A stretch of DNA of 64,000 bases, from assembly GCA_041651395.1 (NCBI GenBank), contig JBAZJI010000001.1, positions 25,169 through 89,168 of the forward strand, written 5' to 3'. Source of the stretch: Minisyncoccota bacterium. GTDB lineage: Bacteria; Patescibacteriota; Minisyncoccia; Minisyncoccales; JAGOPM01. The translations under genes were made by a program, and so were the position numbers. The notes below the pieces were generated by a model. The model worked only from the letters and a program-made list of their open reading frames with translations. It searched no databases and was not told the origin of the DNA. Of this stretch, positions 10,963-63,596 are shown in pieces (position 1 is the first letter of the stretch; each line of letters begins with the position of its first letter).

Positions 10963-10969
10963 ATTTATT

Positions 10970-11701
10970 TTATATGGTTATTTCTTCGTATTGATTAAGC
11001 GATTGGTCTTGGGCAATTATGGCATCAATATAGGAGCCTTCTTCAGAAATTATCCCATCTTCAATATAAATATCATTAAGAAGATTATCTATTTCTGATA
11101 TTTCATCGGCTGAATATGGGCTTGGCGCCATGGCAGTCATTAGCATTTGGGGTGCGGCCTCGGAGGTAGCTATGCTATTTGCAGAAACGTCAGTCGGGGC
11201 ATCTTGGGCTGGTGAGGGGAACGCTTCTCCCGCGGACTTTTCCATTTTAGCCAGTGGCTCGATACTGGAAGTGTCTGCTTGGTCAGTAACAAAGTTATCG
11301 CTAACTTTTGGCAAAATCGGCCTTTGGGGGATATTTAATATCCATAAGCCGGCTACCACCAGGCAGAGAGCCAGTACAGGGGCCAACTTATACTGCCAGC
11401 TTAAATTCTGAAATCCCGCAGCTATGTTGGAAAAAATATCATCACCTTCTTTATTGGTATTACGGTTAGTTGTTTTGTTTGTGACAGGAGATTGGTCAAT
11501 CCCCAAAAGTATTTTTTTCAAGTGTTCTGGATCGGCTTTAGATTCTTGGGCCGAGGCCAAGATGGCCCGCGTAATGCGGCCCATCTCTTGGCACTCAGCT
11601 TTACTAATACCCAAAACAGAGGATATTTGATCCTCGGTTTTGCCTTGCAAATGAAGGGCGATAAACTCATCAATAATATTTTCGCGGTTTATTCCGGGCA
11701 T
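10970..11701 (-). CDS. Single-pass membrane protein with an N-terminal sigma-region-4-like HTH and an acidic C-terminal tail
   Basis: N-terminus IALHLQGKTEDQISSVLGISKAECQEMGR resembles a sigma70 region 4/LuxR-type HTH. TM segment YKLAPVLALCLVVAGLWIL. Only 7 nt upstream of the coiled-coil gene. Confidence 0.5.
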   Translation of the reverse strand: MPGINRENIIDEFIALHLQGKTEDQISSVLGISKAECQEMGRITRAILASAQESKADPEHLKKILLGIDQSPVTNKTTNRNTNKEGDDIFSNIAAGFQNLSWQYKLAPVLALCLVVAGLWILNIPQRPILPKVSDNFVTDQADTSSIEPLAKMEKSAGEAFPSPAQDAPTDVSANSIATSEAAPQMLMTAMAPSPYSADEISEIDNLLNDIYIEDGIISEEGSYIDAIIAQDQSLNQYEEITI

Positions 11702-12714: not shown

Positions 12715-12842
12715 GCATTAATTATAGCAGATAAGTGTATTCTTAAAATATTGTTTATGTTTAGAAAATATATTTACTAATGAGTCAATATGGTTGGAAG
12801 GGGCTGTTTTTGTTATTATTTTTGCATAACTATAAAGATATT

Positions 12843-19652: not shown

Positions 19653-20627
19653 ATGGAAGCGGAAAATAAAAAAATCAAAGTAGTTTGTTTGGGAGGGGGC
19701 AATGCCATGCCTAAAGCTATTTTATCCGACCTTAAGCATCACCCGGTAAAAATTTCGGTTATTTGCGCTATGCTTGATTCGGGTGGTAGCGCTGGCCGTT
19801 TGCGCAAGGATTATAAGATTGTCAGCCCGGGAGATATTAGGCGGGCCTTTGTTGCTTTAGCTAATACTTCGCCGGTTTTTAATGAGCTTTTTGATTACCG
19901 TTTTGAGGCCGGGGAATTAAAGGGGCATAATTTTGCCAATTTATTCATTACGGCCTTGGAGCTTTCAAGCAAAAATTATAAAAAAACTTTAGGCGAGCTC
20001 AACCGCGTATTAAATATCAACCCCGACCATAAGGTTTTGCCGGCCACTCTAGATAAGGCCACTCTTTGCGCCAAGCTCGAAAATGGCAAGGTGATTTGCG
20101 GGGAGACTAATATTGATATTCCCAAGCATAACGGAAATTTGAAAATCGAAAAAGTTTTTCTCAAGCCCAAGGCTAAGGCCTATAAAGAAGCTTTAACCGA
20201 GATAAAGACGGCTGATATTATCACAATCGGTCCGGGGGATTTATACTCTTCTTTAGCCCAAATTTTATTGGTTGACGGTATTGCTCCGGCCATCAGGAAA
20301 AGCCGCGCTAAAAAAGTTTATATTTGTAATTTGATGACCAAGTTCGGGGAGACGAATACTTACGGCGTTTCAGATTTTTCCAAACAAATCGAAGATCTGT
20401 TAGGGGGCGACGTCGATTATGTGATTTATAATAAGGAAAAAATCAGCCCCGCCAGAATTAAAAAGGCCAAGAAAGACGGCGAATTGGCCCCGGCCGATTA
20501 TTGGGACAAAAACGGTAAGGAGCTAAACGGCGATAAATTTATCGGTGTTGATATTGTCAGCGATAAAGGCGAGATTGTTCATGATGCCAAAAAATTGGTT
20601 AATATTATTTTATCTTTAAGCAAATAA
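19653..20627 (+). CDS. YvcK/CofD-family (UPF0052, gluconeogenesis factor-like) protein
   Basis: VVCLGGGNAMP N-terminus and GPGDLYSSL motif. Confidence 0.8.
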   Translation: MEAENKKIKVVCLGGGNAMPKAILSDLKHHPVKISVICAMLDSGGSAGRLRKDYKIVSPGDIRRAFVALANTSPVFNELFDYRFEAGELKGHNFANLFITALELSSKNYKKTLGELNRVLNINPDHKVLPATLDKATLCAKLENGKVICGETNIDIPKHNGNLKIEKVFLKPKAKAYKEALTEIKTADIITIGPGDLYSSLAQILLVDGIAPAIRKSRAKKVYICNLMTKFGETNTYGVSDFSKQIEDLLGGDVDYVIYNKEKISPARIKKAKKDGELAPADYWDKNGKELNGDKFIGVDIVSDKGEIVHDAKKLVNIILSLSK

Positions 20628-20631
20628 AAAT

Positions 20632-21912
20632 ATGGCAACAAAATCTAACAATCCAATTTCCCAAGCGGTAATTTTGGCGGCCGGCCAATCCAGCCGTTTT
20701 TGGCCGCTAAACGAGGTGCACAAATCTTTAGTGCGGATAATGGGTAAGCCAATTATATGGTATACAATTGACAGTCTGGCCAAGTCCGGAGTCAAGGAGG
20801 TAATAATTGTGCAGGGTGCCAACAAAGCAGTAGAAAAAGAACTGGCGGGATTGCAATTCCCCAAGGTAAAAGTAAGATTTATCATTCAAGAACAGCCTAA
20901 TGGCAGCGGTGATGCTATCTTGAAAGCGGCGTCCTTGCTTAAGGGTAGATTTGCCGTGTTAAATGCCGAGCGGGCTGATTTTGCCGGTAATCTTAAGGCT
21001 TTGGCTGCTGTCAAAGCGGAAGTGGTTTTGGCCTGCTGCGAAACTAACCGCCCCTGGCTTTATGGAATTATTAAGGCTGAGAAGAACCGGGTTCTGGAAA
21101 TAGTAGAAAAACCGGAAAAGGGCAAAGAGCCGGGAAATTTGAAGGTAGTCGGAATTTATATATTCGATCAGGATTTTTTGCAAAGGCTGGCTAAAGAGGA
21201 AAATCATCCTTATTCTTTAATTTTTGCAATAAACCAATTAGCTCAAGAGGGGAAGGTGGCTAGTTGTAAAATCAGCAAACAAGAGGCTTTTACCCTAAAA
21301 TATCCTTGGGACTTGTTCGGAGTTCGGGATTTCATATTTGCTAAATATTTGAGCTCCAAAAAAGAAAAGGGTGCCATGATTTCCAAATCGGCGCAAATTT
21401 CCGGAAAAGTTTTTATCGCCAAGGGGGCTATTATTGGTGAGAATACGGTTATTCACGGACCTTGCTATATCGGAGAGGGTTGCGAAATAAGTCCTAATAA
21501 TTTAATAAGAGGCCCGGTGAATTTTGAGGCGCTCTGCCGAACCGGAGCTTTTATGGAAATTAAGGATTGTATTGTTGGGCCCAATAGTCATTTTCATAGC
21601 GGTTATTGTGGTAATTCTATTATTGGCCCGGATTGCCGCCTGGGTGCCGGGTTTGTCTCGGCCAATCGGCGGATTGATAGGGCCAATATCAACGCGGTTG
21701 TCAAAGGGGAAAAAATAGACACGAAGAGTACTTATTTTGGTTTTGCTTGCGGGCCACGCACGCGCTTTGGCATTAAAGCCTCAACAATGCCCGGAGTGCT
21801 TATTGGCAGCGATTGTGTAATCGGGAGCAATACGGTTGTTAGGGAAAATATGGAAGGCAAAAAAATTCTTTATACGGTTTTTGAACAACAAAAACAGGAT
21901 AAAGTGGGATGA
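20632..21912 (+). CDS. Sugar-phosphate nucleotidyltransferase with C-terminal left-handed beta-helix (GlmU-like)
   Basis: AVILAAGQSSRFWPL nucleotidyltransferase motif. C-terminal hexapeptide-repeat region (IGENTVIHGPCYIGEGCEI...). Confidence 0.75.
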   Translation: MATKSNNPISQAVILAAGQSSRFWPLNEVHKSLVRIMGKPIIWYTIDSLAKSGVKEVIIVQGANKAVEKELAGLQFPKVKVRFIIQEQPNGSGDAILKAASLLKGRFAVLNAERADFAGNLKALAAVKAEVVLACCETNRPWLYGIIKAEKNRVLEIVEKPEKGKEPGNLKVVGIYIFDQDFLQRLAKEENHPYSLIFAINQLAQEGKVASCKISKQEAFTLKYPWDLFGVRDFIFAKYLSSKKEKGAMISKSAQISGKVFIAKGAIIGENTVIHGPCYIGEGCEISPNNLIRGPVNFEALCRTGAFMEIKDCIVGPNSHFHSGYCGNSIIGPDCRLGAGFVSANRRIDRANINAVVKGEKIDTKSTYFGFACGPRTRFGIKASTMPGVLIGSDCVIGSNTVVRENMEGKKILYTVFEQQKQDKVG

Positions 21913-22847
21913 ATAAAAAAATGCCCAAAGCCTTAGTGCTTTTTTCTGGCGGCCTAGATTCGATGCTGGCTGCCAAATATTTAACAAGGCAAGGTTTCGA
22001 TGTAACCTGCCTTGTTTTTAAGAGTGTATTTTTTAGTGATGAGAATGCGCAAAAATCCGCTTTACGAATTGGCGCTAAACTATTGGTAGCGGATTTTTCT
22101 TTTGAACATTTAGCGATCGTCAAAAAACCGCAATATGGTTATGGGTCTAGTGTGAATCCTTGTATTGATTGTCATTTATTGATGATCAAAAAAGCCAAGG
22201 AAGTTTTAGAAAAAGAAGGGTTTGATTTTGTAGCTACCGGAGAGGTTTTGGGGCAGAGGCCCATGTCTCAAAATAAGCAGAGTTTGGAATTGATTAGAAT
22301 TAAATCCGGTTTAGGGGATAAATTATTTCGCCCCCTATCAGCCAAATTGCTCGACGAAACTATTGTCCAAAAGAACGGTTGGCTAAAAGACAGCGAATTG
22401 CTTGATATCAGCGGCCGCAGCCGCCAAAAGCAGATGGCGCTGGCCAAGGAATGGGGGATAAAAGAATATCCGACTCCCTCGGGTGGATGTATTTTAACTG
22501 AAAAAGAATTCGGTCAGAGATTGAAGGCTTTGGCTATTACTAAAGCCGATTATTCGGAAAATGATGCAGCCCTGATGCCTTTTGGTTTGCATCATTGGAT
22601 TGGGGGTAACTTGATAATTGTAACTCGCGATAAACTCGATGAATCAGGATTATTGAAATTTGTTGCTAAGGGGGATATTTGTATTAAAATGGAAAATATT
22701 CCCGGACCCTTGGCCTTGATAAGGAAATTTAACAGTGAGCCGAATGAAAATTTAATTGATTTGGCCAAAGAATTTATTTTGCAGCGTAGCCCGAAGGCTA
22801 AGAGCGCCAAAGAAATAAATTTTTCGGAAAAGAAATATGATTTTTGA
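21909..22847 (+). CDS. PP-loop ATP pyrophosphatase (ThiI/MnmA-like tRNA thiolation family)
   Basis: LVLFSGGLDS PP-loop, NPCIDCH Cys motif, ATGEVLGQRPMSQ. Confidence 0.65.
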   Translation: MNKKMPKALVLFSGGLDSMLAAKYLTRQGFDVTCLVFKSVFFSDENAQKSALRIGAKLLVADFSFEHLAIVKKPQYGYGSSVNPCIDCHLLMIKKAKEVLEKEGFDFVATGEVLGQRPMSQNKQSLELIRIKSGLGDKLFRPLSAKLLDETIVQKNGWLKDSELLDISGRSRQKQMALAKEWGIKEYPTPSGGCILTEKEFGQRLKALAITKADYSENDAALMPFGLHHWIGGNLIIVTRDKLDESGLLKFVAKGDICIKMENIPGPLALIRKFNSEPNENLIDLAKEFILQRSPKAKSAKEINFSEKKYDF

Positions 22848-23361
22848 CACTCAAATTGCTCAGTATTTTTCCCAAATTGTTGGTCAAAATCGAACCCTTG
22901 ATGTAGTCATGGTCTTTTTGGCGGAAATTTTGCCTTGGCTTTTGGTCGCCTTGGCTTTATGGTTTGTTTACAACAAATATCGCCGCCAGATTTTAGATTT
23001 TATTTATGTTGCGCTTTCTCTGGTTGTGGCGCGCTTTGGGGTGAATGAAATAATTTATTTTTTCTTCCAAAGGCCCCGGCCCATGGATTTGGGATATCCG
23101 GCTTTATTGGCTCAACAGCCTAACCCTTCATTTCCCTCCGGTCACGCTAGCTTCCTTTTAGCTATCTCTTGGGCGGTTTTTCTGTGCTGCGGCAAAAAGC
23201 CGGGGATTTCATTAATTTTTCTTAGTAGTTTATCGCTGGTGGCTCGGATGTATTGTGGGGCTCATTTTTTAAGTGACATTTTGGCCGGGGCGGCTATCGG
23301 GATATCCTGTGCTTACGTTTTGTGGAAATTATATTTTAGCAAAAGATGCGCCGTGTTTTAA
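22837..23361 (+). CDS. PAP2-family phosphatase (undecaprenyl-diphosphatase BcrC-like)
   Basis: Polytopic membrane protein with PSGHASF and ARMYCGAHFLSD (PSGH / SRxxxxxHxxxD) motifs. Confidence 0.75.
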   Translation: MIFDTQIAQYFSQIVGQNRTLDVVMVFLAEILPWLLVALALWFVYNKYRRQILDFIYVALSLVVARFGVNEIIYFFFQRPRPMDLGYPALLAQQPNPSFPSGHASFLLAISWAVFLCCGKKPGISLIFLSSLSLVARMYCGAHFLSDILAGAAIGISCAYVLWKLYFSKRCAVF

Positions 23362-24314
23362 GTTTTTTTTGTTTGCTGTTTTTAATCCCCTCTATTTGTT
23401 TGGGTGCGGAGTTTTCGGTCGGGAAGGGGCAAAATATTCTTCAAGTCAGCAAAAATCTCCAAACAGCCGGTTTGCTCGAGAATCGATTTTTGTTTATTTG
23501 GGAGGCATTCTTCAGTGGGCAATGGCGCAAAATAAAAGTTGGGCAATATGAAATTCGTAATGATTCTAGTCCGAAAGAGATTTTGGCCATTCTAGTAGCT
23601 GGTCGAGTGGCGCCTAAAAAGGTAACAATAATTTCTGGTTGGACCATTAAGGATATCGCCAAAGCCCTCAGCCGACAGGGAATTTGCAGCAGTGGAGAAT
23701 TTTTGGAATATACTTTGGCGACAAGCTCTGTTGAGGCGCTGATTGCTGATTTTGAATTTTTGCGCGAGTTGCCCCAAGGGGCTGGCCTGGAGGGGTATCT
23801 ATATCCTGATACTTATAATTTTGAGGCTAAGAGCCGGCCGGAAAAAGTTGTTCGACAGATGTTAGAAAACTTTCAAAAGAAAATTATTTTAGCGAAAAAT
23901 TTTTCTCTCCCAAAGAGCAGAAACGCTTTTTCCATTCTAACAATGGCTTCTTTATTGGAAAAAGAAGTGAGAAGTTTTGAAGATAAAAAAATAGTGGCGG
24001 GCATCCTTTGGAAGCGCCTAGATGCCGGCTATCCTTTGGAGGTTGATTCGAGCTTGGAATATTTCCGAGTGGGGAAGGGTTCTCTAAGTAAGAATCCACA
24101 GCTCAAAACAGAGGATTCCGGTTATAATACTTATAAGTATTCGGGTTTACCCTTGGGGCCAATATGCAATCCTGCCAAAGAGTCGTTTGAAGCCGCTTTT
24201 TCTCCGGCTCCTAGCCCTTATTGGTTTTATTTATCTGCCCCAGACGGCAAAACAATATTTTCAAAAAATTTGCGAGAGCATTTAATAAATAAAGAAAAAT
24301 ACTTAGTCAATTAA
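23346..24314 (+). CDS. mltG: Endolytic murein transglycosylase MltG (YceG family)
   Basis: Signal or anchor segment, then YLYPDTYNF, ASLLEKE, YNTYKYSGLPLGPICNP. Confidence 0.9.
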   Translation: MRRVLSFFCLLFLIPSICLGAEFSVGKGQNILQVSKNLQTAGLLENRFLFIWEAFFSGQWRKIKVGQYEIRNDSSPKEILAILVAGRVAPKKVTIISGWTIKDIAKALSRQGICSSGEFLEYTLATSSVEALIADFEFLRELPQGAGLEGYLYPDTYNFEAKSRPEKVVRQMLENFQKKIILAKNFSLPKSRNAFSILTMASLLEKEVRSFEDKKIVAGILWKRLDAGYPLEVDSSLEYFRVGKGSLSKNPQLKTEDSGYNTYKYSGLPLGPICNPAKESFEAAFSPAPSPYWFYLSAPDGKTIFSKNLREHLINKEKYLVN

Positions 24315-24315
24315 T

Positions 24316-27300
24316 ATGGAAAACGATTTTGTTCCACCAACCCCCGACGATTTTTCTTCGAAAAACGACCTTGTTTGGCGAATGGCGGCTATTGTCGGTC
24401 TGATTATTTTGGGATTGGGATTTATTTTTTTTCCTCGTTGGGGACTATTTATATCTAAAAAAAGTCCTTTTGATAATTCGTTCAACCTTTTACGAATTGT
24501 CCCCGAAAAGGTTTCTGTTTCTGCCGCCATCAGGGTGAATTTGCCCAAAGGCATGTCTTTTTCGGAAGCCAAAAATAACATCTCTTTTGATCCTCCACTG
24601 GAAGGCAGCTGGGGCAAGGGGGAAATTTCCTTTGTTAATGAGGCGGCCAGTGTTGCGCTAGCCGCAGAAAGTTCCCAGGTGGCTATTTTTAAGCCCAGTA
24701 AAAAATTGGAATCAAATCGCCATTACGCGGTTAAAATTAAACTTTCCGGCGGGCAAGAAATGTCTTCCGATTTTTTAGCCGTTGATGACCCGCGAATACT
24801 TTCGATTATTCCCGTTAACGGTTCGGAAGCGCCCGAGGATTCTAGAATTACCATTGCCTTCAATAGGCCGATGGTCGCCCTGACTTCTTTAGATGTGGCG
24901 GAAAAAAGGGAAGTGCCGGTAGAGATAATCCCAGTCACTAAAGGAGAATGGAAGTGGTTAGGAACCAATACTTTACAATTCAGGCCCCAAGCCGGGCTCG
25001 TCGCTTCGGCTAATTATAAAGTAAGAGTTAAACCCGGCTTTGTTTCTGAAGAGGGTTTGGCCGTGGAAGGCGCTCAGAGTGTTTTTACTACCAGAAATCT
25101 CCGCTACGTCCAAGAATATAATTACAGCGACAACTCTTTGGTTTATAATGAGCCTTTTAGATTATATTTTAACCAGCCTATAGATTTGCAAAAAACGATT
25201 AGAGAAATAAAGCTAACCAGTCAGGACGGCGGTCAGAGTTTGGAATTTGTCGCCAAACACCCCAAAATAAAATCTGACGGAAATAAAGCTGAATTTAAGA
25301 GCGGCGACATATTTTCCGGAGCCATTACCCAGCTCGCCAGTATTTTCGATATATTTTCTTTTTCTACGCAGGGCGGTGAGGAGGATAAAAGCATTGTGGA
25401 GATATATTTGGCTAAAGACAAGTTTGGCCGGGAAAAAATTTGGGATTTTGAAAAAAATTATTCCCTCTCCATTAATAAAGTTTATCCCCTTGCCGGTGAT
25501 ATAAATATTAAAGATTCCAAATTTGTATCCTTTAAGACTACCAATGTTGTCCAGTCGATAAATTTTCAATCCCCCAGATCAAATTTAGTTACCGCTGATT
25601 TATTTGACCCGCAAGGCCAAGTCATACTCAATTTCTACGAGGAAATAGATTTAAGCAAAAGTAAAATTTCTGGGCCTAACATCCGCAAAATAGAATATGG
25701 CAAGCATTGCGACCCCAATCAGCCCCAGTTTTCCGATTGCCAAAAGGTAGATAATAAAAAACAGATTTTGTTAAGCTTTACCGCCGAAAAATTTTCACCC
25801 GGAGATAACGTAATGATTACCTTGGACAGTTTATATAATTTCTCCGGTTTGCGCCTTTCCGACGATTCGATTGGCTATGTCCTGAAAGTGCCCAGTGAAT
25901 TGAAGATTTATAAGGTTGCAGAGAGCAATTTGCAGAGCCTGAAGATTTGTTCCAACAACCCAATAGCCGAACCGAGCAAAGAGGAAAAGAAAAATTGGAT
26001 AAGCAGTAATTTGGATTACGAGCTGGGCTACTGGTCTCATTCTTATCGGGAAGAAAATAGTGGGGAAGTTTGCCAGCTCGGCAATTATGTGACGGTCGTT
26101 GGCGTTGGTTTGATGCCCGAACAAAGGTATATTCTAGATTTGCGCCTTAAGGATGAATTTGGGCAGACTGGGCAAGGAAATTTTGAGGTTAAAACCGGCG
26201 CCATGCCAAATAACCAAACTTCATTATATCTTATTCAAAGCGGTTATAAGGTTGTGGCCCAACCTGGTAGCGCCAAATTACTTTACGCGGCGCGTAATTT
26301 GGATTACGTAAATGTGAAAGTTTGCTCGACGGTTTTTGATTTTATTAAAGGCAGGTATTCGGATGTCTGCTTGGATCCGAGCAGTAAAAAAATCGATTTA
26401 CCAAAAAAATATTGGATAACAAAGTATTTTGAAGTGGACCTCGATGAATTTACCGGAGGGCAGCAGGGATTCTACAAGGTTATCGTGACCAATCCGGACT
26501 TTATCGAGAAAAAATATATTTGCGAGAAAGGCAATAATTCTTGCACGGAGAAATCGGTGGTTGGCTCAATTGAGACCGATATTAATTTGACCAATTTGGC
26601 AGTTGCCCAAAAAGTGATTAATCCGGTAACAGCCGGCAGCTCTTTGGATGGGCTTTCCGAATCGCAGCTTTCTGATTTAAGGGATATTTTTTGGGTGACA
26701 AAAATAGATTCCCAAGAGCCGGTTGGGCAAGCTAAGGTTGAGCTTTTTGTATCCGGCAGCAGCCGGGCAAGCAGTTTGACCGATAGCCAGGGAATCGCCC
26801 AAATAAAACCAGTGCCCGGCGCCTCTTACGCCCTGATAACTTCTGGCAATGATTCGACGGTTTTATCCTTGAATGGCGAGAGTTTTAATTATGTTTCCGA
26901 TCAGGCGGGTAAAGCAAGGAAATTTTATCTTTACACCGATAAGCCGATTTATAGACCGGGCCAGACAATTAATGCCAAAGGTATTTTGCGCGTTGGCTTT
27001 GATGGTAATTACGAAATACTTTCTGGGAAAAATTACGATGTCGTCATTTATAATTCAAAAGACGAGGCGGTTAAAACAGAAAGTGTGCGGCTGAATGATT
27101 TTGGCACTTTTAATTTGTCATTTTTAATTCCAGCCGATGCACCTTTGGGCGGCTGGCGCATTTGCCTGGCAGCTTCTTCCTATGACTGTTCTTACCTTGA
27201 TGTTAAGGAATATGTGGCTTCACCTTTCCAAGTCAAGGCAGAATCCGACAAAGAAGAATATGTTTCTAAAGATAAGGCGAGAATAAGTATTAATTCCGAT

Positions 27301-30300
27301 TATTATTTTGGCGTGCCTCTGTCGGGTGCAAAATTCTCCTATACTGTTTCCAGCCAGAATTATTATTTTGACAAGTATGATGGCGAGTGGTTTACTTTTG
27401 GCGATTGGGGGCAGAATTATGGGGAATATTATTATGGTGATAGGTATTTGTATCGCAAAGAAGGGGTTTTAGATGAGAAGGGCAGGGCCAATATAGAATT
27501 TGATTCTGATTTAGCCAAACTCATTAAGGCTGATGACAGCTATTACAGTAAGATTATTAATTTTGATATCAATGTTTCTAATGCGCAGGGTCAAATGGTC
27601 TCTACCCAAAAGACCATTATTGTCCACGCCGGTGAGTTTTATTTAGGGGTGAAGGCCGATCCTTATTTTGCCGGCAAGGGACAGAAGTTGGCCATAAAAG
27701 CTAAAACTTTGGATTTAACGGGTAAGCCTCGCGGTATTGGTAATATTAGGGCCGAGATTTTCAGAGTTGAGTGGTTTGAGTCTAAGCGGCAAGAAGGTGG
27801 AATCTATTCTACTTCCTGGGAGAAAAAATTAACAAAGGTTAAGGAATTTTATTTTGGGACCGATAAGGATGGCAATGCCAGACAGGAATTTTCTTTAGCC
27901 CAAGAAGGTAATTATGAAATAGCAGTCAGTGCCCCAGATGGGAAAGGAAATGTTGTTCGCTCGCGCACAGATGTTTATATTTGGGGTAGTGGCCCATCTT
28001 CTATTAGGGAAGAGGCGGGAGCGGAGCTAAATTTGGTAGCGGATAAAAACGATTATAAAGTGGGCGATAAGGGAACAATTGTGATCCAGTCGCCGTTTCC
28101 TAAGGCCAAGGCCTTGGTGGCTATCGAGAGAGGGAAAGTTTTTGAATATAAAGTCATTGATGTGCTTGGCAATCTTTCCGAGTATTCTTTCGATGTCAAA
28201 AAAGAATATTGGCCGAACTTTTATGTCAGTGTTCTTTTGCAATCGCCGCAGCCCAGTGCGAAATATGCCATGAAATATTTTAATGTTGGAGGAGAGCTAA
28301 ATAAGCTCAATGTAGAGGTTAAGGCCTCTCAAACACAATATAAACCAGGAGATGAAGTCCAAATAGAAATAATCACTAGTGACAAAACCGGGGCGAGAGT
28401 TTCTGCTGATGTTTCTTTAGCGGTTATTGATTTGAGCGTGCTGGCTTTGGAGGGCAATCCCAAAAAGAATCCCCTGGTATTTTTTTACGATGGCTTTCCT
28501 TTGGGCGTTGCCACCTATTCTAATTTAGACACGTTTTTGGAGCCGGCCTCTAAGGCCTTGAGCCGGACAAAGGGTGGTTCCGGCGGCGGCGGGATGGCGG
28601 CCGATGAAGCGGCTAAGCCGCGGGGGGATTTTAGGGAAACGGCTTATTGGCAGGGCTCAATTATTACCGATAATAATGGGTATGCTAAAATTTCCTTCAA
28701 GCTTCCTGATAATCTTACGACGTGGCAAGCTGAATCTTTAGGTGTCAGTAAAGATACTAAGCTCGGAGTAGGCTATGCGCAATTTATGAGTAAAAAAGAC
28801 GTGATGGTGGTAGCCCTAAAACCACGTTTTAGCGTTCCCGGAGACCAGATGTTTTTAGGGGCGCAAATTTTCAATCAAACCAAAGAGAAATTGGATTTTG
28901 AGGTTGAGCTGTCGACGCAGGGATTGCAGATAAATGATAGCTCGTCGAAGCGAAGAGTAGCCATTGGGGCCGGCAAGTCCCAAACGGTTTACTTTAGTGT
29001 AAAATCTCCGTCAGAGCAGACGAGCGGTGCCAATTCTTTTACGATTATGGCCCGGGCGAAAAATTATTCCGATGGCGTTACACATCAAATCCCCGTTAAG
29101 GCCGATTTGACCTACGAGGTAGTGGCTACCTCCAATTATATTAAGGCTCGTTCGGTCACGGAGGTGATTTATTTGCCCGCCAACATCTCTAGTGAAGTGG
29201 GAGAGGTTTCCGTCGGGGCGGCCGCTACTTTGTCGGTTTTTATGAATAAGGCCCTAGAATCACTCATTAGCTATCCGTATGGCTGCACCGAGCAGGTTGC
29301 CGGCAAGCTGCAGGCTTTGGCTGTGGTCAAAAAATCTTTAGCCGCCGCTAATGTCGACTCGACCCTGCTAGCTAAAAAGTATCCCGGAGAAAATGGAAAA
29401 GAATATAGTGTAGAGGAAATGGTCCAAATTGGGTTGGCTAGAATATATAATAATCAACGTTGGGATGGAGGTTTTTCACTTTGGCCGAATTCCGAGGCGA
29501 GCGATTTCGCCACACTTTCTGCCTTGCAGGCTTTTAATAGTTTGAAATCTTCAGGCTTTGTGATTAACGAATCCGCCAGAGGCAAAGCGGCTGATTATCT
29601 TTACGCTAGATTGTTTAACAGTTCCGATTGCTCAAGTCAAAGCAATTTTAGTTCGTGTCAGTCGATAAGTGATGGGCATATAGTAGAAATTACTTCGGCT
29701 CTGATGGATGTCCCAAAATATGAATCGGATGCAAATCTAAAAGGGAAAATTTTGAACATCATTTCTAGTAAAGCCCGTTTACAGGATAAATTAGGTATGC
29801 ATTCTTTGGCTCAGTTGGGAATTTTGGTGAATTCTCGCGACTTTTCTCCTGAGGCTAAGAAAAAGGTTAATGATCTACTGGATAATAGTTTGATTATTGA
29901 TTCCCGCGGCGCCTTTTTGGAAGCCAGCCGTCAAGGTTACTATTACTATGACAATTCCATTTCAGATACGGCGCTTTATTTGAAATCTTTGGCTTTTGGC
30001 AAGCGCCAAGCGCCCCTATATGAGCGGGCCCTCCGCTGGGTATTAAATTCGAAAAATGCCTCCGGGGATTGGGGCTCGACGAGAAATAATTTGGATGTGG
30101 TTGAGGCCTTTGCCAGTATCATTTCTTGGCATAAAGAGAACGATGCCAAATTTGATTTTGAACTTTTAATCAATAACATTTCCCAAGCCCAAAAATCATT
30201 CGGGCCTAAAAATATTTTTGATCAGTTCAAGGCGCAGACAGCCATGAAAAAATTAAGAGTGGGCGATTATAATTTCCTAGACTTGAAAAAGAATTCCGAT

Positions 30301-30804
30301 GACGGAATGTATTATGATGTGGAGTTAAAATATTATTTGAAGGGGAGAGTTGCCCCTCGCGATGAAGGGTTTACGGTCACGCGCGCTTTTTATGCTGTTA
30401 CCGATAAGAAAAATGAATCGCCACTTTCGGATATTAAAGTTGGCGATATAGTTCGGGAACATCTGGCCTTAATTGTTCCGCAAACGCGTCGGCATGTTTC
30501 TATTGAGGATTATATTCCAGCCGGTATGGAGATTGTGGATTTAAGTCTCGCTACTGAGGATAAATCTTTACGCTTGGCCCAAAGTGAATTAAAGGGCAAT
30601 TACTTCTGGCCGGAATTCAAAGAAATCCGTGACGACAAGGCCTTTATTTACACTTCCTATTTGGAACCGGGCGAATATACGATCGATTACTTCTTACGGG
30701 CTACAAGTAAAGGTGAGTTTACCCAGTTACCGGCAATAGTTTCGGAAATGTATGAGCCGGAAGTTTTTGGCCGGACTGCTAGTGAAGTAATTAAGATACG
30801 TTAA
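24316..30804 (+). CDS. Membrane-anchored bacterial alpha-2-macroglobulin family protein with intact thioester (2162 aa)
   Basis: N-terminal TM helix (MAAIVGLIILGLGFIFF). MG-domain motifs (FYLYTDKPIYRPGQT). Gly-rich bait-like segment (SRTKGGSGGGGMAADEAAKPRGDFRETAYWQ). A2M domain (LPDNLTTWQAESLGV). Thioester GCTEQ at nt 29281-29295 (Cys ~1657). TED helices (GGFSLWPN). Starts 1 nt after the mltG stop. Confidence 0.9.
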   Translation: MENDFVPPTPDDFSSKNDLVWRMAAIVGLIILGLGFIFFPRWGLFISKKSPFDNSFNLLRIVPEKVSVSAAIRVNLPKGMSFSEAKNNISFDPPLEGSWGKGEISFVNEAASVALAAESSQVAIFKPSKKLESNRHYAVKIKLSGGQEMSSDFLAVDDPRILSIIPVNGSEAPEDSRITIAFNRPMVALTSLDVAEKREVPVEIIPVTKGEWKWLGTNTLQFRPQAGLVASANYKVRVKPGFVSEEGLAVEGAQSVFTTRNLRYVQEYNYSDNSLVYNEPFRLYFNQPIDLQKTIREIKLTSQDGGQSLEFVAKHPKIKSDGNKAEFKSGDIFSGAITQLASIFDIFSFSTQGGEEDKSIVEIYLAKDKFGREKIWDFEKNYSLSINKVYPLAGDINIKDSKFVSFKTTNVVQSINFQSPRSNLVTADLFDPQGQVILNFYEEIDLSKSKISGPNIRKIEYGKHCDPNQPQFSDCQKVDNKKQILLSFTAEKFSPGDNVMITLDSLYNFSGLRLSDDSIGYVLKVPSELKIYKVAESNLQSLKICSNNPIAEPSKEEKKNWISSNLDYELGYWSHSYREENSGEVCQLGNYVTVVGVGLMPEQRYILDLRLKDEFGQTGQGNFEVKTGAMPNNQTSLYLIQSGYKVVAQPGSAKLLYAARNLDYVNVKVCSTVFDFIKGRYSDVCLDPSSKKIDLPKKYWITKYFEVDLDEFTGGQQGFYKVIVTNPDFIEKKYICEKGNNSCTEKSVVGSIETDINLTNLAVAQKVINPVTAGSSLDGLSESQLSDLRDIFWVTKIDSQEPVGQAKVELFVSGSSRASSLTDSQGIAQIKPVPGASYALITSGNDSTVLSLNGESFNYVSDQAGKARKFYLYTDKPIYRPGQTINAKGILRVGFDGNYEILSGKNYDVVIYNSKDEAVKTESVRLNDFGTFNLSFLIPADAPLGGWRICLAASSYDCSYLDVKEYVASPFQVKAESDKEEYVSKDKARISINSDYYFGVPLSGAKFSYTVSSQNYYFDKYDGEWFTFGDWGQNYGEYYYGDRYLYRKEGVLDEKGRANIEFDSDLAKLIKADDSYYSKIINFDINVSNAQGQMVSTQKTIIVHAGEFYLGVKADPYFAGKGQKLAIKAKTLDLTGKPRGIGNIRAEIFRVEWFESKRQEGGIYSTSWEKKLTKVKEFYFGTDKDGNARQEFSLAQEGNYEIAVSAPDGKGNVVRSRTDVYIWGSGPSSIREEAGAELNLVADKNDYKVGDKGTIVIQSPFPKAKALVAIERGKVFEYKVIDVLGNLSEYSFDVKKEYWPNFYVSVLLQSPQPSAKYAMKYFNVGGELNKLNVEVKASQTQYKPGDEVQIEIITSDKTGARVSADVSLAVIDLSVLALEGNPKKNPLVFFYDGFPLGVATYSNLDTFLEPASKALSRTKGGSGGGGMAADEAAKPRGDFRETAYWQGSIITDNNGYAKISFKLPDNLTTWQAESLGVSKDTKLGVGYAQFMSKKDVMVVALKPRFSVPGDQMFLGAQIFNQTKEKLDFEVELSTQGLQINDSSSKRRVAIGAGKSQTVYFSVKSPSEQTSGANSFTIMARAKNYSDGVTHQIPVKADLTYEVVATSNYIKARSVTEVIYLPANISSEVGEVSVGAAATLSVFMNKALESLISYPYGCTEQVAGKLQALAVVKKSLAAANVDSTLLAKKYPGENGKEYSVEEMVQIGLARIYNNQRWDGGFSLWPNSEASDFATLSALQAFNSLKSSGFVINESARGKAADYLYARLFNSSDCSSQSNFSSCQSISDGHIVEITSALMDVPKYESDANLKGKILNIISSKARLQDKLGMHSLAQLGILVNSRDFSPEAKKKVNDLLDNSLIIDSRGAFLEASRQGYYYYDNSISDTALYLKSLAFGKRQAPLYERALRWVLNSKNASGDWGSTRNNLDVVEAFASIISWHKENDAKFDFELLINNISQAQKSFGPKNIFDQFKAQTAMKKLRVGDYNFLDLKKNSDDGMYYDVELKYYLKGRVAPRDEGFTVTRAFYAVTDKKNESPLSDIKVGDIVREHLALIVPQTRRHVSIEDYIPAGMEIVDLSLATEDKSLRLAQSELKGNYFWPEFKEIRDDKAFIYTSYLEPGEYTIDYFLRATSKGEFTQLPAIVSEMYEPEVFGRTASEVIKIR

Positions 30805-30805
30805 G

Positions 30806-32884
30806 TTAACGGAGGTAAATTTCGAGAGTTTCGCGCAAGTCAGAGGAAGAGGCCGAAATATCATAGTGGCCTTTTTCTTTCGGATAAAATTCCAGATTTG
30901 TTCCCGAGCCAAAAAATTTATCATTAATTTTCCATTGCGCGGGAAATTTAGAGGTAAGTTTAATAACCGTATTGTCTTCAAGGATATAAACGTCATTGGC
31001 GTGGGGGGTTAAAATCAGATCGCTGTCTAATTTAAGCATGATATTCTTTGCAAATTCAAAATTGTCACCCTTAAGACCAAAATCAGTATCTCCATTGATT
31101 TCAAAATTTTCAATGTCGGAATATTGGAAATTATCATTGGAGGCGTAGCGGCTATTGGCGAGCAGATCCATGATATCATTCCAAATCACTGCAGCCCCCT
31201 TGGCGCCAGAGAGTCCTTCGGTTTTGCTGTTATCGGCATTGCCAACCCAAACGCCCACTAAATAATTCGACGTATAACCGATTATCCAAGAGTCTTTATA
31301 ATCTTGGGAGGTGCCGGTTTTGAGCGCATAGTTTTTTGTTTGCAGGTTAAGAAGGGATTGGGCGCCAAACTGGTCTTGGGCGATTATTCTATCGGAAAGA
31401 ATTTTATTAATGAGTTGGACGTATTTTTTTTCCGCCACTTGTTTTTGTATTGGCGGAAAATATAAAGCGTTTGTCTTTGGGGATTGAAAAAGGCGGAGCT
31501 GGGAAAATTTCCCTTCATTGGGAAAAATCGTAAAATAATGAGCAAGTTTAATTAAGGGCATTTCGAGCAGACCCATAGCCATGCCTAATTGGTAATTTTC
31601 CAAAGACTGGACTGGGGGAAATTCTAATTTATTCTCTAAAAATTCAGAAAAATTATCTACGCCAACAAATTCTAAGGTTTTCAAAGCGGGAACGTTTAAG
31701 CTGTTGGCTAATGCATAATGGGCAGTGACGAGACCGTGGTATTTGTTGTCGTAATTTCTCGGGTAGTAGGGTAGGCCATCATTGGTTATGTATTTATATT
31801 CGCGGTCTTCAATTAGGGTGTAGGGCCTTTGGCCTTTTTCAAAAGCCAAAAGGTATATAAAAGGTTTAACCGTGCTACCGATAGCCCGGGGCTTTTGCAG
31901 CATATTTATTTGGTAACCCTCTTGCAGGGAATATTGATCTGGACTGCCAACCATAGAGAGCACTTCATTTTCTGGAATTTTTATCACTATTGCGGCGGCA
32001 TTTTTGGCTTTGGCGGTTTGGAGTTTAGTGATATTGCGGCTAACTATTTGGCGCACTTTATAGTCGATTTCCGCGTCGAGTGTCAGCTGTTGGCTATTTT
32101 TTTCCTCTTTCAAATAAGTTTCTAGTTCCAGCGGCAGCAAATTATTAGCATTAAATTTTTTATAATTAGCCGTGATTTGCCCAAGGTCGGGTGGTGCTTC
32201 CCAGGCTAAAGATGTTTTGTCTGCCCAGAATTTGGCGGTCGGCGCATTTTCGCCGGAAAGGGGATTAAAGTTAGAAGGATTACTAATTGTCGCTAGTAGT
32301 AAAGATATCTCTTCATCGCGAAGGTTATCGGGTGTTTTAGCAAAGTAGGCTTGGGAAGCAGTTTTAACGCCCTGTATTTGATTGCCGAAGTAAATACTAT
32401 TGCAATACATTTGAGCAATTTCGCTTTTAGGATTATAGAGGTCTAGGGCTAGGGCGAAAAATAACTCTTTGAATTTATTAGGGGCAGTTCTTTGGTTCTC
32501 TTGCGAGAGCAGAATTTTAGCTAATTGCTGAGTGATAGTACTGGAGCCCTTACGCTCTCCAAAACCAAATCTGGCGAGAAGGTCTTGTAGAGTGCTTATC
32601 GGGTTAAATCCCTTGTGCCAATAGAAATATTTATCTTCTTTGGCTACTAGGGCTTTAATTATATTTTCCGGGCATTTTCCATATTGGGTATAGTAGCCGT
32701 TTTTGTTTTTAATTAAAACGAGAGGCGTATTAAAACGATCAATAATACTGGGAGAGGAAAGTGATTGATATTCTTTAATTAGATTTTTATTGGCCATCTC
32801 CAAAGAAAATAGGAATAAGCAAACAATAATAATTAAGGCCCAGGCGAGATGGTATTGCTGTAGTTTTGGAAATAATTTTCCCAT
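30806..32884 (-). CDS. pbpC: Penicillin-binding protein 1C (bifunctional glycosyltransferase/transpeptidase)
   Basis: TM anchor. GT51 motifs EDKYFYWHKG and GSSTITQQ. Transpeptidase STVK, SLN, KTGTS. C-terminal PBP1C-type beta domain. 692 aa. Confidence 0.9.
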   Translation of the reverse strand: MGKLFPKLQQYHLAWALIIIVCLFLFSLEMANKNLIKEYQSLSSPSIIDRFNTPLVLIKNKNGYYTQYGKCPENIIKALVAKEDKYFYWHKGFNPISTLQDLLARFGFGERKGSSTITQQLAKILLSQENQRTAPNKFKELFFALALDLYNPKSEIAQMYCNSIYFGNQIQGVKTASQAYFAKTPDNLRDEEISLLLATISNPSNFNPLSGENAPTAKFWADKTSLAWEAPPDLGQITANYKKFNANNLLPLELETYLKEEKNSQQLTLDAEIDYKVRQIVSRNITKLQTAKAKNAAAIVIKIPENEVLSMVGSPDQYSLQEGYQINMLQKPRAIGSTVKPFIYLLAFEKGQRPYTLIEDREYKYITNDGLPYYPRNYDNKYHGLVTAHYALANSLNVPALKTLEFVGVDNFSEFLENKLEFPPVQSLENYQLGMAMGLLEMPLIKLAHYFTIFPNEGKFSQLRLFQSPKTNALYFPPIQKQVAEKKYVQLINKILSDRIIAQDQFGAQSLLNLQTKNYALKTGTSQDYKDSWIIGYTSNYLVGVWVGNADNSKTEGLSGAKGAAVIWNDIMDLLANSRYASNDNFQYSDIENFEINGDTDFGLKGDNFEFAKNIMLKLDSDLILTPHANDVYILEDNTVIKLTSKFPAQWKINDKFFGSGTNLEFYPKEKGHYDISASSSDLRETLEIYLR

Positions 32885-32965
32885 GGTTTTATTTTAGCAT
32901 TAACTTTGCTTAAAAAACGACCCCGGGGGGTTTGAGCCCCTCATCCTTCGGATTAAAGTTTTCAG

Positions 32966-33166
32966 GAGGGACTCGCCCTTCGGTCAAAGTCTGGTGACTT
33001 TGCCTCAGGGCCCGGCTCGCCGCCAGTCGCGGCTGCACCTTCTCGTCCCATCCTTCGTTTCATGCTAAAGCCTCAGAGGGACTCGCCCTTCGGTCAAAGT
33101 CTGGTGACTTTGCCTCAGGGCCCGGCTCGCCGCCAGTCGCGGCTGCACCTTCTCGTCCCATCCTTC
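32966..33166. repeat. Two identical 91-bp GC-rich direct repeats (32966-33056 and 33076-33166; 110-bp period)
   Basis: The two copies match base for base on direct comparison. About 66% G+C by hand count. Internal hairpins caaagtc/gactttg and gccgc/gcggc. A degenerate partial copy lies at ~32931-32965. Confidence 0.95.
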
Positions 33167-33175
33167 AGTCCCAAT

Positions 33176-33216
33176 ATAAATAAAAAATACTATTTATAAT
33201 AGTATTTTTTATTTAT
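33176..33216. repeat. Perfect A/T-rich inverted repeat (19-bp arms, 3-nt loop) abutting the tRNA-Leu 3' end
   Basis: ataaataaaaaatactatt-tat-aatagtattttttatttat. Likely a terminator or processing hairpin for the tRNA on the minus strand. Confidence 0.85.
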
Positions 33217-33217
33217 G

Positions 33218-33301
33218 TGCCGAAGGAGGGACTCGAACCCTCAAGGGCGAAAGCCCATACGATTTTGAGTCGTACGCGTATACCAGTTCCACCACTTCGG
33301 C
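33218..33301 (-). tRNA. tRNA-Leu (anticodon CAA), class II with long variable arm, CCA not encoded
   Basis: Reverse complement folds as acceptor GCCGAAG/CTTCGGC; a 3-bp D stem with GG loop; anticodon stem TACGA/TCGTA with loop CTCAAAA; variable arm TGGGCTTTCGCCCTTG; T arm GAGGG-TTCGAGT-CCCTC; discriminator A. Confidence 0.9.
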
Positions 33302-33393: not shown

Positions 33394-34257
33394 ATGCGCG
33401 ATGTTGCTAAATTAAGAGCAATGGCGCGGGTTGTTTGCGTTATTAATAATAAGGGTGGCGTAGGGAAGACTAACGTCTGTGTGAATCTTTCTGCCTTTTT
33501 AGCCGCTATGGGAAAGCGTGTTCTTTTGATTGATTGTGATCATCAAGGCAACGCAACCTTTTCCGTGGGTATCAGGCCGCAAAATTTATCACTTTCCGTT
33601 TATAATGTTTTACTTGGAGAAATTAATGCTGAGGCGGTTATAAAAAGCACGAGCATTTTAGGATTTGATATCTTGCCCGCCAATCAAGCTTTAGCTGGCG
33701 CCAATGTTGAATTGGTCAGTGCGGAAAATCGGGAGTTTAAGTTAGCTGAGACTATTAAGGGTTTGGAGACTAGCTACGAATTTATTATAATTGACACACC
33801 GCCGTCTTTAGGAATTTTAACAGTGAATGCTTTATGCGCAGCTAATGAGGTTATTATTCCCATCCAAGCTGAATATTTGGCCTTGGAAGGAGTAAACCAA
33901 ATATTAGAAACTATTTCTTTAGTTCAGGATAATTTAGGGCATGAATTTAATTTTATCGGAGCGGTGTTGACTATGCATAGCCGGGGCAATGTTATTGCTC
34001 GGGAGGTTTCCAAAGAATTGACTCGAGATTTTGGCGGCTATGTTTTTGATGCCTCAATTCCGCGCCTTATTGATTTGGCAGCCGCGCCTAAATTCGGCAA
34101 ACCGATCGTGCAGTACGCCCCTAATTCTAAGGCGGCGCAAATATACAGATATTTTGCTCAAGAATTTTTACATGTTCACGAACGTTTGGCCGGCGGAGGT
34201 CAAGCGCCGGGAGAAAATATTAATAATGTTGAGACTTCTCAAACAACTCAAATATGA
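33394..34257 (+). CDS. parA: Chromosome partitioning ATPase ParA/Soj
   Basis: Deviant Walker A NNKGGVGKT, IIIDTPPS. ATG at 33421 (MARVVCVINNKGG) is an equally plausible start. Confidence 0.9.
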   Translation: MRDVAKLRAMARVVCVINNKGGVGKTNVCVNLSAFLAAMGKRVLLIDCDHQGNATFSVGIRPQNLSLSVYNVLLGEINAEAVIKSTSILGFDILPANQALAGANVELVSAENREFKLAETIKGLETSYEFIIIDTPPSLGILTVNALCAANEVIIPIQAEYLALEGVNQILETISLVQDNLGHEFNFIGAVLTMHSRGNVIAREVSKELTRDFGGYVFDASIPRLIDLAAAPKFGKPIVQYAPNSKAAQIYRYFAQEFLHVHERLAGGGQAPGENINNVETSQTTQI

Positions 34258-35144
34258 ACAATAAACCATTTTCGAAAGGGTTGGGTGCCTTGATACCTAA
34301 TAAGGTTAAAAAGATCGAGGTTCCTGGGGTAAAACACAGCGATGCGATTTATTATGTTGATATCGCCAAAATTACTCCTAATCCTTATCAACCTCGTAAA
34401 GAATTCGATTTGGAAGCTTTGAAATCTTTGTCGGAAAGTATCAAAGATTATGGCATTCTTCAGCCCTTGGTTGTTTCCAAAAACGAAAAAGTGAATTCTT
34501 TGGGAGCTTCCGTTGAGTATCAGCTCATTGCCGGAGAAAGGAGATTGACCGCGGCCAAGATGGCTGGCCTTAAAGAAGTACCGGTTATCATGAGACAAAC
34601 TTCTAGCCAAGAGAAGTTGGAATTATCCTTAATTGAAAATGTACAACGCGCCGACTTAAATCCGATCGAAAGAGCTTTGGCCTATAAGAGATTAGAAACA
34701 GAATTTCGTTTAGGCCAAAAAGAAATTGCCCGGGTAGCGGGAAGGAGCCGGGAGGGAGTAGCCAATACTATGCGCCTTTTGAGCCTGCCACCCAATATTA
34801 TTCAAGCGGTTCGCGACGGGAAAATATCAGAGGGGCACGCTCGGGCTATTCTGGGCCTTCAAGAAGTTGCAAAACAAGATAGGGTTTTCCAAGCTGTTTT
34901 AGCCCAAGGCTTGACCGTCAGGGAAGTGGAAGAGTGGGTCCAGAAAATCAATATTATAGATGAGACGGGAACGGTGCGGACAGCCAAACGATTGCAGGAT
35001 TTTGGCGAACTAGAAAATCGCTTAAAAGATTATTTCAAAATTGACAATATTAGAGTTAAAAACGAAATGGGCAAACCGAAAATTATGATTACCTTTGCCG
35101 ACAAGGCTGGTGTGGAAAGTTTTATAAAGAGATTAACGGCTTAG
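34254..35144 (+). CDS. parB: Chromosome partitioning protein ParB/Spo0J
   Basis: ParB box IAGERRLTAAK, HTH (QKEIARVAGRSREGVANTMRLL). ATGA overlap with parA. Confidence 0.9.
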   Translation: MNNKPFSKGLGALIPNKVKKIEVPGVKHSDAIYYVDIAKITPNPYQPRKEFDLEALKSLSESIKDYGILQPLVVSKNEKVNSLGASVEYQLIAGERRLTAAKMAGLKEVPVIMRQTSSQEKLELSLIENVQRADLNPIERALAYKRLETEFRLGQKEIARVAGRSREGVANTMRLLSLPPNIIQAVRDGKISEGHARAILGLQEVAKQDRVFQAVLAQGLTVREVEEWVQKINIIDETGTVRTAKRLQDFGELENRLKDYFKIDNIRVKNEMGKPKIMITFADKAGVESFIKRLTA

Positions 35145-47886: not shown

Positions 47887-47914
47887 AATATGATATAATT
47901 TAGAGACAAACTTT

Positions 47915-63235: not shown

Positions 63236-63268
63236 TTTCCTTACTAAAAAAGGTTATTACCAAAAAAA

Positions 63269-63297
63269 CTCCCCCGCCATCTGGCGGGGGTTTTGTT
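63269..63297 (+). terminator. Strong intrinsic terminator after the surface-protein gene
   Basis: cccccgcc / ggcggggg 8-bp GC stem, atct loop, T-run at 63291-63294. Confidence 0.85.
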
Positions 63298-63311
63298 TGT
63301 GCAAAATATGG

Positions 63312-63339
63312 TTGACAGCGCTATTAGACGGATTATACT
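63312..63339 (+). promoter_or_regulatory. Sigma70-type promoter for the AbrB-family gene
   Basis: TTGACA (63312-17), 16-nt spacer, TATACT (63334-39). ATG at 63348. Confidence 0.6.
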
Positions 63340-63347
63340 TATCAAAT

Positions 63348-63596
63348 ATGAAAAGTATGAATGGGCATTTCGGGCATGCCTTCGGAATAAGCCCTATGGG
63401 GGAGCGCGGGCAAGTGGTAATCCCCAAAAGGATTAGGGAATTACTCAACCTTAGGACCAAAGAAGATTTGATTTTTTTCTGCCAAGGCAAGGCGATAATA
63501 GCCATGCCGGCGAGCAAATTCCAAGGCTTGGCTAAAGCTATGGTCAATCACACCAAAGACATTGAAAAGATGGCAAAAAGAATGAAAAAGAAGTAA
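63348..63596 (+). CDS. AbrB/MazE/SpoVT-family DNA-binding protein (82 aa)
   Basis: GERGQVVIPKRIRELLNL swapped-hairpin motif. The longer ORF from 63192 overlaps the upstream gene, the terminator and the promoter, so ATG 63348 is preferred. Confidence 0.7.
   Translation: MKSMNGHFGHAFGISPMGERGQVVIPKRIRELLNLRTKEDLIFFCQGKAIIAMPASKFQGLAKAMVNHTKDIEKMAKRMKKK

Follow-up and report, generated by a model that had tools for sequence, protein, structure and literature searches.

The 64-kb window examined here (64,000 nucleotides (nt) of contig JBAZJI010000001.1, positions 25,169–89,168; coordinates below count from the first letter of the window) derives from a 951,739-nt contig of a member of the Patescibacteria with a Paceibacteria-type genome and carries, between a tRNA-Leu(CAA) gene and pbpC, a short array of GC-rich hairpin units closed by copies of the tRNA 3′ end. 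The array is real, non-coding and outside any described RNA family. The reading favoured here, held with considerable reservation, is that it constitutes a foldback repeat, hypervariable and confined to one genus, which arose through recombination and palindrome-templated mutation at the tRNA-gene junction, the perfect pair of units within it being the product of recent gene conversion or unequal crossover.

Structure of the repeat array

Two direct repeats of 91 nt (32,966–33,056 and 33,076–33,166) are identical at 91 of 91 positions (100%), with a period of 110 nt and a 19-nt linker between them (33,057–33,075), just as a first-pass annotation made from the sequence alone had described. The 23-nt core of the repeat occurs at 2 sites only (0 expected from shuffles). 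The G+C content of the unit, estimated by hand at ~66%, was measured at 65.9%, versus 42.5% for the whole window; the surroundings, which had been called AT-rich, do have lower G+C, but the genome is moderately rather than extremely AT-rich. The hairpins listed in that annotation are real. The array lies in the gap between pbpC (30,806–32,884, minus strand) and parA (from 33,394, plus strand), which at 509 nt is the largest non-coding stretch of this densely coded window (runners-up, 208–248 nt). As claimed, no open reading frame (ORF) of ≥60 aa lies in the repeats; two 33-aa minus-strand ORFs, neither of them conserved, are present. The only RNA gene found by ARAGORN and Rfam in the 64 kb is tRNA-Leu(CAA) (33,217–33,301, minus strand; RF00005, 54.4 bits), which differs by 1 substitution in a sister species described below.

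Read in the sense of the tRNA, the order is a promoter-like site, tRNA-Leu, a hairpin (T1), unit 2, linker, unit 1, a diverged linker, a truncated third unit, a T-run, TGCTAAAAT and the pbpC ATG. T1 (33,176–33,216, no strand assigned) lies directly 3′ of the tRNA and has 19 bp, nearly all A-U (−15.5 kcal/mol, z −6.8). Unit 2 (33,076–33,166, minus strand), the tRNA-proximal copy, was delimited by identity and fold, scores 129 bits with model R1 and is orthologous to unit A of the sister species; it comprises the 5′ clamp GAAGGAUGGGAC, a junction (GAGAA), hairpin P2, GG, hairpin P3, GA and the 3′ clamp GUCCCUC. On either strand, the predicted fold of the unit is a closed three-way junction (plus, −39.8 kcal/mol, z −3.2; minus, −45.6 kcal/mol, z −4.4), in which P1 (GGGAC/GUCCC + GGA/UCC) is the closing helix and P2 and P3 are the two hairpins. 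The linker UGAGGCUUUAGCAUGAAAC (33,057–33,075, minus strand) is homologous to the sister-species linkers CUGAGGCUUUA(A/G)UAUAUAUCC. Unit 1 (32,966–33,056, minus strand; 133.6 bits with the covariance model) has the same sequence as unit 2 and ends in GAGUCCCUCCU. Beyond it, a diverged linker plus the truncated third unit occupy 32,931–32,965 (minus strand), where comparison with the sister unit starts shows that only the 5′ clamp AUCCGAAGGAUG (32,942–32,953) is left. This is the decayed partial copy reported ahead of the repeats; it exists, but as the start, in tRNA sense, of a third unit and not as a copy of the plus-strand start.

Clamps derived from the tRNA-Leu end

Both ends of the unit resemble the 3′ end of the adjacent tRNA. 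A 12-nt exact match, AGGAGGGACTCG, is shared by copy 1 and tRNA-Leu: the 3′ end of unit 1 (GAGUCCCUCCU) reproduces 12 nt of the T-loop/T-stem/acceptor segment of the tRNA without a mismatch. The unit 3′ end AGGG--CGAGTCCCTCCT matches that segment at 16/18 positions if a single 2-nt gap is allowed (shuffle p ≤ 0.008). For the 5′ clamp CCGAAGGA(T)GGGAC, the counterpart is the tRNA 3′ end in reverse complement (13/13 plus one inserted base, p = 0.0012); its match to the tRNA 5′ end is poorer (p = 0.046). The unit interior has no similarity to the tRNA (p = 0.84). The resemblance to the T-arm segment of tRNA-Leu that had been pointed out earlier is thus confirmed, and is larger than claimed. Judged from this similarity, the source of the clamps is the last ~13–18 nt of tRNA-Leu (GGGTTCGAGTCCCTCCTTCGG).

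Each module has a 13–14-nt 5′ clamp, CCGAAGGA(U)GGGAC, which is inverted, and a 3′ clamp, CGAGUCCCUCC, which is a direct tRNA copy; the two pair with each other and enclose GC-rich hairpins unlike tRNA. Pairing between the 5′ and 3′ clamps was found in 5/5 unit variants, giving the terminal inverted repeats of a REP-like repeat or miniature inverted-repeat transposable element (MITE), and CGAGTCCCTCC(T) is met again 150 and 260 nt downstream of its copy in the tRNA, giving direct repeats of the att type. Because the clamps come from the tRNA 3′ end and the interior is unrelated, the units are tRNA-end foldbacks around foreign hairpins, not tRNA duplicates. Duplication of the whole tRNA was rejected because of the unrelated interior, as was a further tRNA gene or pseudogene (ARAGORN and RF00005 call one tRNA only, and unit similarity is confined to the ends).

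An inverted repeat with 34-nt arms (I1; T1 plus flanks) pairs the tRNA 3′ end with the array start. Since the first 5′ clamp lies just past T1, the tRNA end, T1 and the array start form one long palindrome. The stability of T1 is similar to that of the tRNA-Leu terminators of relatives (−13.9 and −22.6 kcal/mol), and T1 is probably a bidirectional terminator. Its loop and closing bases are inverted between species (ATTATAAAT at 33,193–33,201 of the window versus ATTTATAAT at ~4,607–4,615 of sister-species contig L004), i.e. a hairpin-loop inversion.

The locus in sister and third species

The array was compared between two species. In the sister species (PbpC 95% identity; flanks 92–94% nt identity over ~11 kb), represented by four independent assemblies, the intergenic sequences are the same save one substitution upstream of the tRNA. 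Fragmentary members of the PbpC cluster are C-terminal pieces that stop short of the array, and a search with the N-terminal 200 aa returned no close PbpC fragments. The flanking alignments (6.9 kb and 4.4 kb) contain 0 and 1 gaps, versus at least three large indels within the 0.7-kb gap, which measures 699 nt in the sister species and 509 nt in the window.

The sister array has three units with common clamps, 2/3 of which have unrelated interiors. Unit A is the orthologue of the window unit. Units B (~125 nt) and C (~45 nt) start with AUCCGAAGGAUGGGACGAGAA and end with AGUCC(C/A)UC, as unit A does, with interiors made of other GC-rich hairpins (UCCCGACAGGUCGGGA and a 27-nt tandem with UCCCGAUUUAUCGGGA), and all sister variants fold closed by the same P1. 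Hairpin TCCCGACAGGTCGGGA, common to units B and C, is found in three contexts in this species, one of them upstream of the tRNA. The sister array combines near-identical linkers with differing cores, the window array identical cores with differing linkers (~60–70% alike by eye), a contrast suggesting that sequence blocks exchange at the clamps. The 91-nt identity ends sharply at the clamps, which fits conversion better than a simple 110-nt duplication.

Directly upstream of tRNA-Leu, the sister species carries a 99-nt insertion (L004, 4,391–4,489) that is absent at ~33,302 of the window. It begins with copied sequence, namely AATAA and the ~25 nt that open the tRNA, continues with hairpin UCCCGACAGGUCGGGA and further GC-rich sequence, and would fall within the 5′ leader of the precursor tRNA. 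A third species (ParA 93%) has the initial 13 nt of tRNA-Leu (GCCGAAGTGGTGG) followed by unrelated GC-rich sequence (CCGCGCCCGCCTCGCAAGCGAGCTTGCT; contig L196, 1–45), and three independent Logan contigs of this species end there, 132 nt upstream of parA.

That the duplication is an artefact of assembly is hardly credible. The window does come from a short-read metagenome assembly, and a Logan contig from this organism is interrupted within the tRNA. The two copies, however, have different flanks, the sister multi-unit array is the same in four independent assemblies from different samples, and the k141_ contig name implies k = 141, longer than both the 91-nt repeat and the 110-nt period, so that the copies were presumably spanned together with unique flanks.

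A small peptide, encoded by the 33-aa ORF ATGGGACGA, was also considered. It was rejected because the orthologous unit reads ATGGGATGA followed by a stop (ATG GGA TGA), with the stop at codon 3; the GAAGGA motif directly abuts the ATG.

Synteny and distribution

Three distant relatives (ParA 82%, 69% and 68%; L199, L200 and L201) retain the parA/tRNA-Leu(CAA) arrangement. None of the three has the array; an ordinary GC-rich terminator follows the tRNA, and then the next gene. PAP2, ThiI and NTP_transferase lie downstream of the tRNA in these relatives, while in the window CofD, NTP_transferase, ThiI and PAP2 (19,653–23,361) are parted from the tRNA by yceG/mltG, an alpha-2-macroglobulin (A2M) gene and pbpC (23,346–32,884, no strand assigned; identified by Pfam and by synteny with the three relatives) plus the array. 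As the relatives are without this ~9.5-kb segment here, the array sits at the junction between the segment and the tRNA 3′ end. The array is known from one genus, a narrow distribution, and any function is putative.

The segment itself (23,346–32,884) is a cell-envelope block, comprising yceG/mltG, a 2,162-aa alpha-2-macroglobulin and pbpC; it lies between PAP2 and tRNA-Leu in this genus but not in the three otherwise syntenic relatives. The most GC-rich stretch of the window (28,517–28,672; up to 72% over 90 nt) lies inside its alpha-2-macroglobulin gene.

Origin of the array

In the favoured reading of a hypervariable foldback repeat, the clamps would have arisen by palindrome-templated copying and/or recombination at the tRNA end, as the yceG-A2M-pbpC segment joined the tRNA. 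The short clamp repeats would then serve unequal crossing-over and gene conversion. In the window genome the two cores would have been homogenised to 100% and the linkers left diverged; in the sister species the linkers would have been homogenised and the cores left different. The array would have no dedicated conserved cellular function, and any transcription would be read-through from tRNA-Leu. In favour of this reading are the common clamps around differing cores, the tRNA-derived ends, palindrome I1, the clustering of indels in the 0.7-kb gap, the insertions upstream of the tRNA, the restriction to one genus, the synteny break and the sharp end of identity at the clamps, together with the precedents at tRNA ends given next.

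tRNA gene ends are classical integrase targets. A tyrosine integrase (PF00589, E = 2.7e-22) is encoded at 10,285–11,370 of viral contig L208 (IMG/VR 3300023435_001447), 85 nt from a tRNA-Leu 3′ fragment of which 27 nt are identical to the window tRNA end; the site is likely the attP or attL of an element with 51–60% G+C. Tandem accretion at tRNA and tmRNA genes is documented to leave serial direct repeats of the 3′ end of the gene, beginning in the T-loop (PMC3146451, PMC5704250).

Several observations weigh against the favoured reading. It does not account for the G+C richness or the source of the interiors. No integrase, transposase or recombinase domain was found in the 48 window ORFs (0/48), so the att-type direct repeats are not accompanied by an integrase, and the far end of the 9.5-kb segment has no tRNA-end repeat. 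A gene-dense 0.95-Mb genome retains 300–500 nt here in two species, which hints at function or constant regeneration. The window unit and sister unit A differ at 5 positions in ~93 aligned columns; this rate, equal to the genomic background, speaks for the favoured reading, but the kinds of difference speak against it. Two of them together turn a C-G pair of P2 into G-C, a third (C to U) produces a G-U pair, a fourth moves P1 into the register GGAUGG/CCAUCC and the fifth is in a loop. The tRNA-sense fold accommodates four of the five, which is what selection on an RNA would predict, and a compensatory double among five random substitutions has a chance of ~0.03, in one sequence pair only. Palindrome-templated correction or mutation would yield the same compensatory pattern without selection.

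It is also possible, although doubtful, that the units are a tRNA-end-clamped hairpin cassette of an undescribed kind kept in a streamlined Paceibacteria genome: either a mini site-specific mobile element with inverted termini from the tRNA-Leu(CAA) 3′ end, or three-way-junction RNAs derived from the tRNA trailer and processed or bound like tRNA.

RNA fold and RNA-family searches

A structured non-coding RNA on the minus (tRNA-sense) strand, either as a 3′ trailer of tRNA-Leu or as a separate small RNA, with an acceptor/T-stem-like helix that closes each three-way junction and could be recognised or processed in the manner of a tRNA minihelix, is an unlikely explanation for which several features can nevertheless be cited. 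All units fold far below shuffles and more stably in tRNA sense (−45.6 versus −39.8, −51.7 versus −44.0 and −61.1 versus −55.7 kcal/mol), G-U pairs occur in tRNA sense only (U26-G47; C18 to U in the sister species), and tandem G-A internal loops can be read from the sequence, in addition to the compensatory double in P2 described above. The units are oriented as the tRNA, and the T1 stem is almost all A-U, making read-through conceivable; non-coding DNA is otherwise scarce in this genome. Against an RNA stand the lack of a promoter or terminator belonging to the units (none was found by terminator scan and folding), the absence of the array from three relatives with the same synteny, the other interiors of 2/3 units in a 93%-identical genome, and the divergence of the orthologous unit at the background rate. 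The covariation comes from one pair, and shuffle controls reached 167/500 on an alignment of 3 sequences only.

Searches of Rfam 15 on both strands, at gathering thresholds and at E ≤ 10, identified tRNA alone in the window and the sister array; the best unit match at E ≤ 10 was S4-Bacteroidia (15.1 bits versus a threshold of 34.7). The statement in the first-pass annotation that no known RNA family fits therefore holds under an Rfam search. Its suggestion of a duplicated novel small RNA was not borne out, given units without a promoter or terminator of their own, interiors that vary in the sister species and an array missing from three relatives, and the rule behind that suggestion, by which a GC-rich hairpin island is usually a structured RNA, does not discriminate, as DNA-level palindromic repeats fit equally well.

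Other structured elements were considered and rejected. Hammerhead, twister and other ribozyme cores, k-turns and purine-riboswitch-like junctions did not fit by eye, and Rfam was negative. For a CRISPR array there are 2–3 units with ‘spacers’ of 16, 66 and 97 nt, two of them identical, and no cas domain was seen in the window. A ToxI-like type III toxin-antitoxin RNA is not compatible with the downstream gene, which has Transgly and Transpeptidase domains and no toxin, and an integron attC site with the absence of an R-box (GTTRRRY) and of cassettes.

Other copies and mobility

Less probable still is that each unit is a miniature site-specific element, mobile or foldback but not autonomous, that is MITE-like or resembles a cis-mobilizable element. 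Its terminal inverted repeats would mimic the tRNA-Leu 3′ end, and a recombinase targeting that sequence would move it in trans, so that copies accumulate beside the tRNA and beside one another. The 13–14-nt inverted termini around variable interiors, presence or absence between near-identical genomes, the recurrence of hairpin TCCCGACAGGTCGGGA in three sister-species contexts (one upstream of the tRNA), the other GC-rich insertion after a tRNA 5′ fragment in the third species and the use of the same tRNA end by integrases are all consistent with mobility. No target-site duplication was seen, however, and, as noted, the window encodes no recombinase domain. Further copies were sought with blastn-short, nhmmer, motifs and a filters-off covariance model in the other 63.5 kb of the window and in 12 kb of the sister locus, and with the filters-off covariance model in the other Patescibacteria loci compared, and none was found.

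The searches in wider collections were likewise negative. With distant blastn, phages yielded no match and plasmids none of relevance, and viral contigs gave chance matches for the clamp and none for the core. Genome contigs (596 Gb) scanned with GAAGGATGGGAYGAGAA gave at least 119 single chance matches, a weak test since the pattern is too short. Metagenome contigs scanned with a longer degenerate pattern gave 32 chance matches, in coding regions, and this negative is also weak because the scan missed JGI contigs Ga0116242_10009860 and Ga0248168_1003249 (L006 and L007; three exact matches).

The probable pbpC promoter and parAB

The region between the array and pbpC (32,885–32,930, minus strand) contains, as read by eye, the T-run and an extended −10 box, TGCTAAAAT (32,899–32,891), which is conserved in the sister species and ends 6 nt before the ATG at 32,884. 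With a −10 box at this distance, the pbpC mRNA is probably leaderless. An orthologue of pbpC (52% identity) has a 47-nt upstream gap, with TATAGT 7 nt before its ATG; this short gap and the position of the −10 box together place the array upstream of the probable pbpC promoter.

Most window genes are without a Shine-Dalgarno sequence, and several first-in-operon genes have TGnTAnAAT from a few to ~15 nt before their start (e.g. at 12,715–12,730, 32,885–32,899 and 47,890–47,914). This suggests that leaderless or very short-leader mRNAs are widespread in this genome.

The first-pass annotation had also offered a tandem cis-regulatory leader of pbpC (riboswitch or attenuator) on the minus strand, and the array does lie upstream of pbpC on the same strand, with a T-run after it. 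This explanation is very improbable. The extended −10 box implies a leaderless mRNA, the orthologue leaves only 47 nt for a leader, and array content is not conserved between species whose PbpC is 95% identical. A terminator after the array was rejected as well, as the T-run region folds poorly, none was called in the scan and the T-run belongs to the pbpC promoter region.

Tandem repeats each with a 7+2+7 palindrome form the sopC centromere of the F plasmid, and the array lies ~230 bp from parA. A centromere-like (parS-type) repeat bound by the adjacent ParB was considered on these grounds, in addition to which the sister species has 7+2+7 palindromes and canonical parS (TGTTTCACGTGAAACA, ≤4 mismatches) was found neither in the 64 kb nor at parAB in four relatives. 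The palindromes are missing from the window genome, however, even though its ParA belongs to the same 90%-identity cluster as that of the sister species, and the relatives carry parAB but lack the array. A centromere function was rejected as highly implausible, since the two species do not have the palindromes in common. These organisms may use another or a distant centromere site.

Comparison with known systems

Tandem accretion of integrative elements, which includes decayed ‘cis-mobilizable elements’ (PMC5704250), generates repeats of tRNA or tmRNA ends, as in the ssrA islands of Dehalococcoides (PMC3146451), and these resemble the array, which sits at a synteny break, varies strongly in content between close relatives and has a counterpart in the integrase found beside the same tRNA-Leu end in a viral contig. 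Unlike the kilobase-sized elements of accretion, array units are about 50–140 nt, gene-free and without an integrase nearby. In addition, each contains the tRNA end in inverted form and is self-folding, and the direct repeat measures just 12–16 nt.

REP/BIME, Correia and Rickettsia palindromic elements and the GC clusters of yeast mitochondria are dispersed repeats present in tens to hundreds of copies. The array is like them in consisting of GC-rich, non-coding hairpin modules in a lower-GC genome, with inverted termini, variable interiors and presence or absence between close relatives, but differs in that all copies found are at one locus and the termini come from the adjacent tRNA.

With mascRNA, bacterial YrlA, tRNA-derived SINEs and the 3′ external transcribed spacer of the leuZ operon of E. 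coli, the array shares derivation from or attachment to a tRNA, the same orientation and an acceptor plus T-stem-like closing helix. Unlike these RNAs, it has no cloverleaf and no T-loop (the UU is missing), is negative with ARAGORN and RF00005 and has an unrelated interior. ToxI arrays and tandem riboswitch aptamers likewise consist of structured units in tandem, followed by a gene in the same orientation; here, however, the next gene encodes a PbpC transglycosylase-transpeptidase, the units are not conserved between sister species and there is no Rfam match.

If the array is a by-product of recombination only, its value is limited to marking a hot spot of structural change beside a tRNA gene in a rigid, compact Patescibacteria genome, and to the caution that GC-rich hairpin islands are not necessarily RNA genes. 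Should the units prove to be expressed or mobile, they would rank among very few lineage-specific non-coding elements described in Patescibacteria, and an unusual element that borrows a tRNA end as closing helix or terminal repeat.

Other features of the window

The parAB genes span 33,394–35,144. The longest parA ORF starts at 33,394, and an in-frame ATG at 33,421 gives MARVVCVINNKGGVGKT; most ParA homologues beyond the closest are 250–270 aa, and the true start is probably downstream of 33,394. Near the end of the window, a 134-aa ORF (63,192–63,596) encodes a MazE-type antitoxin domain.

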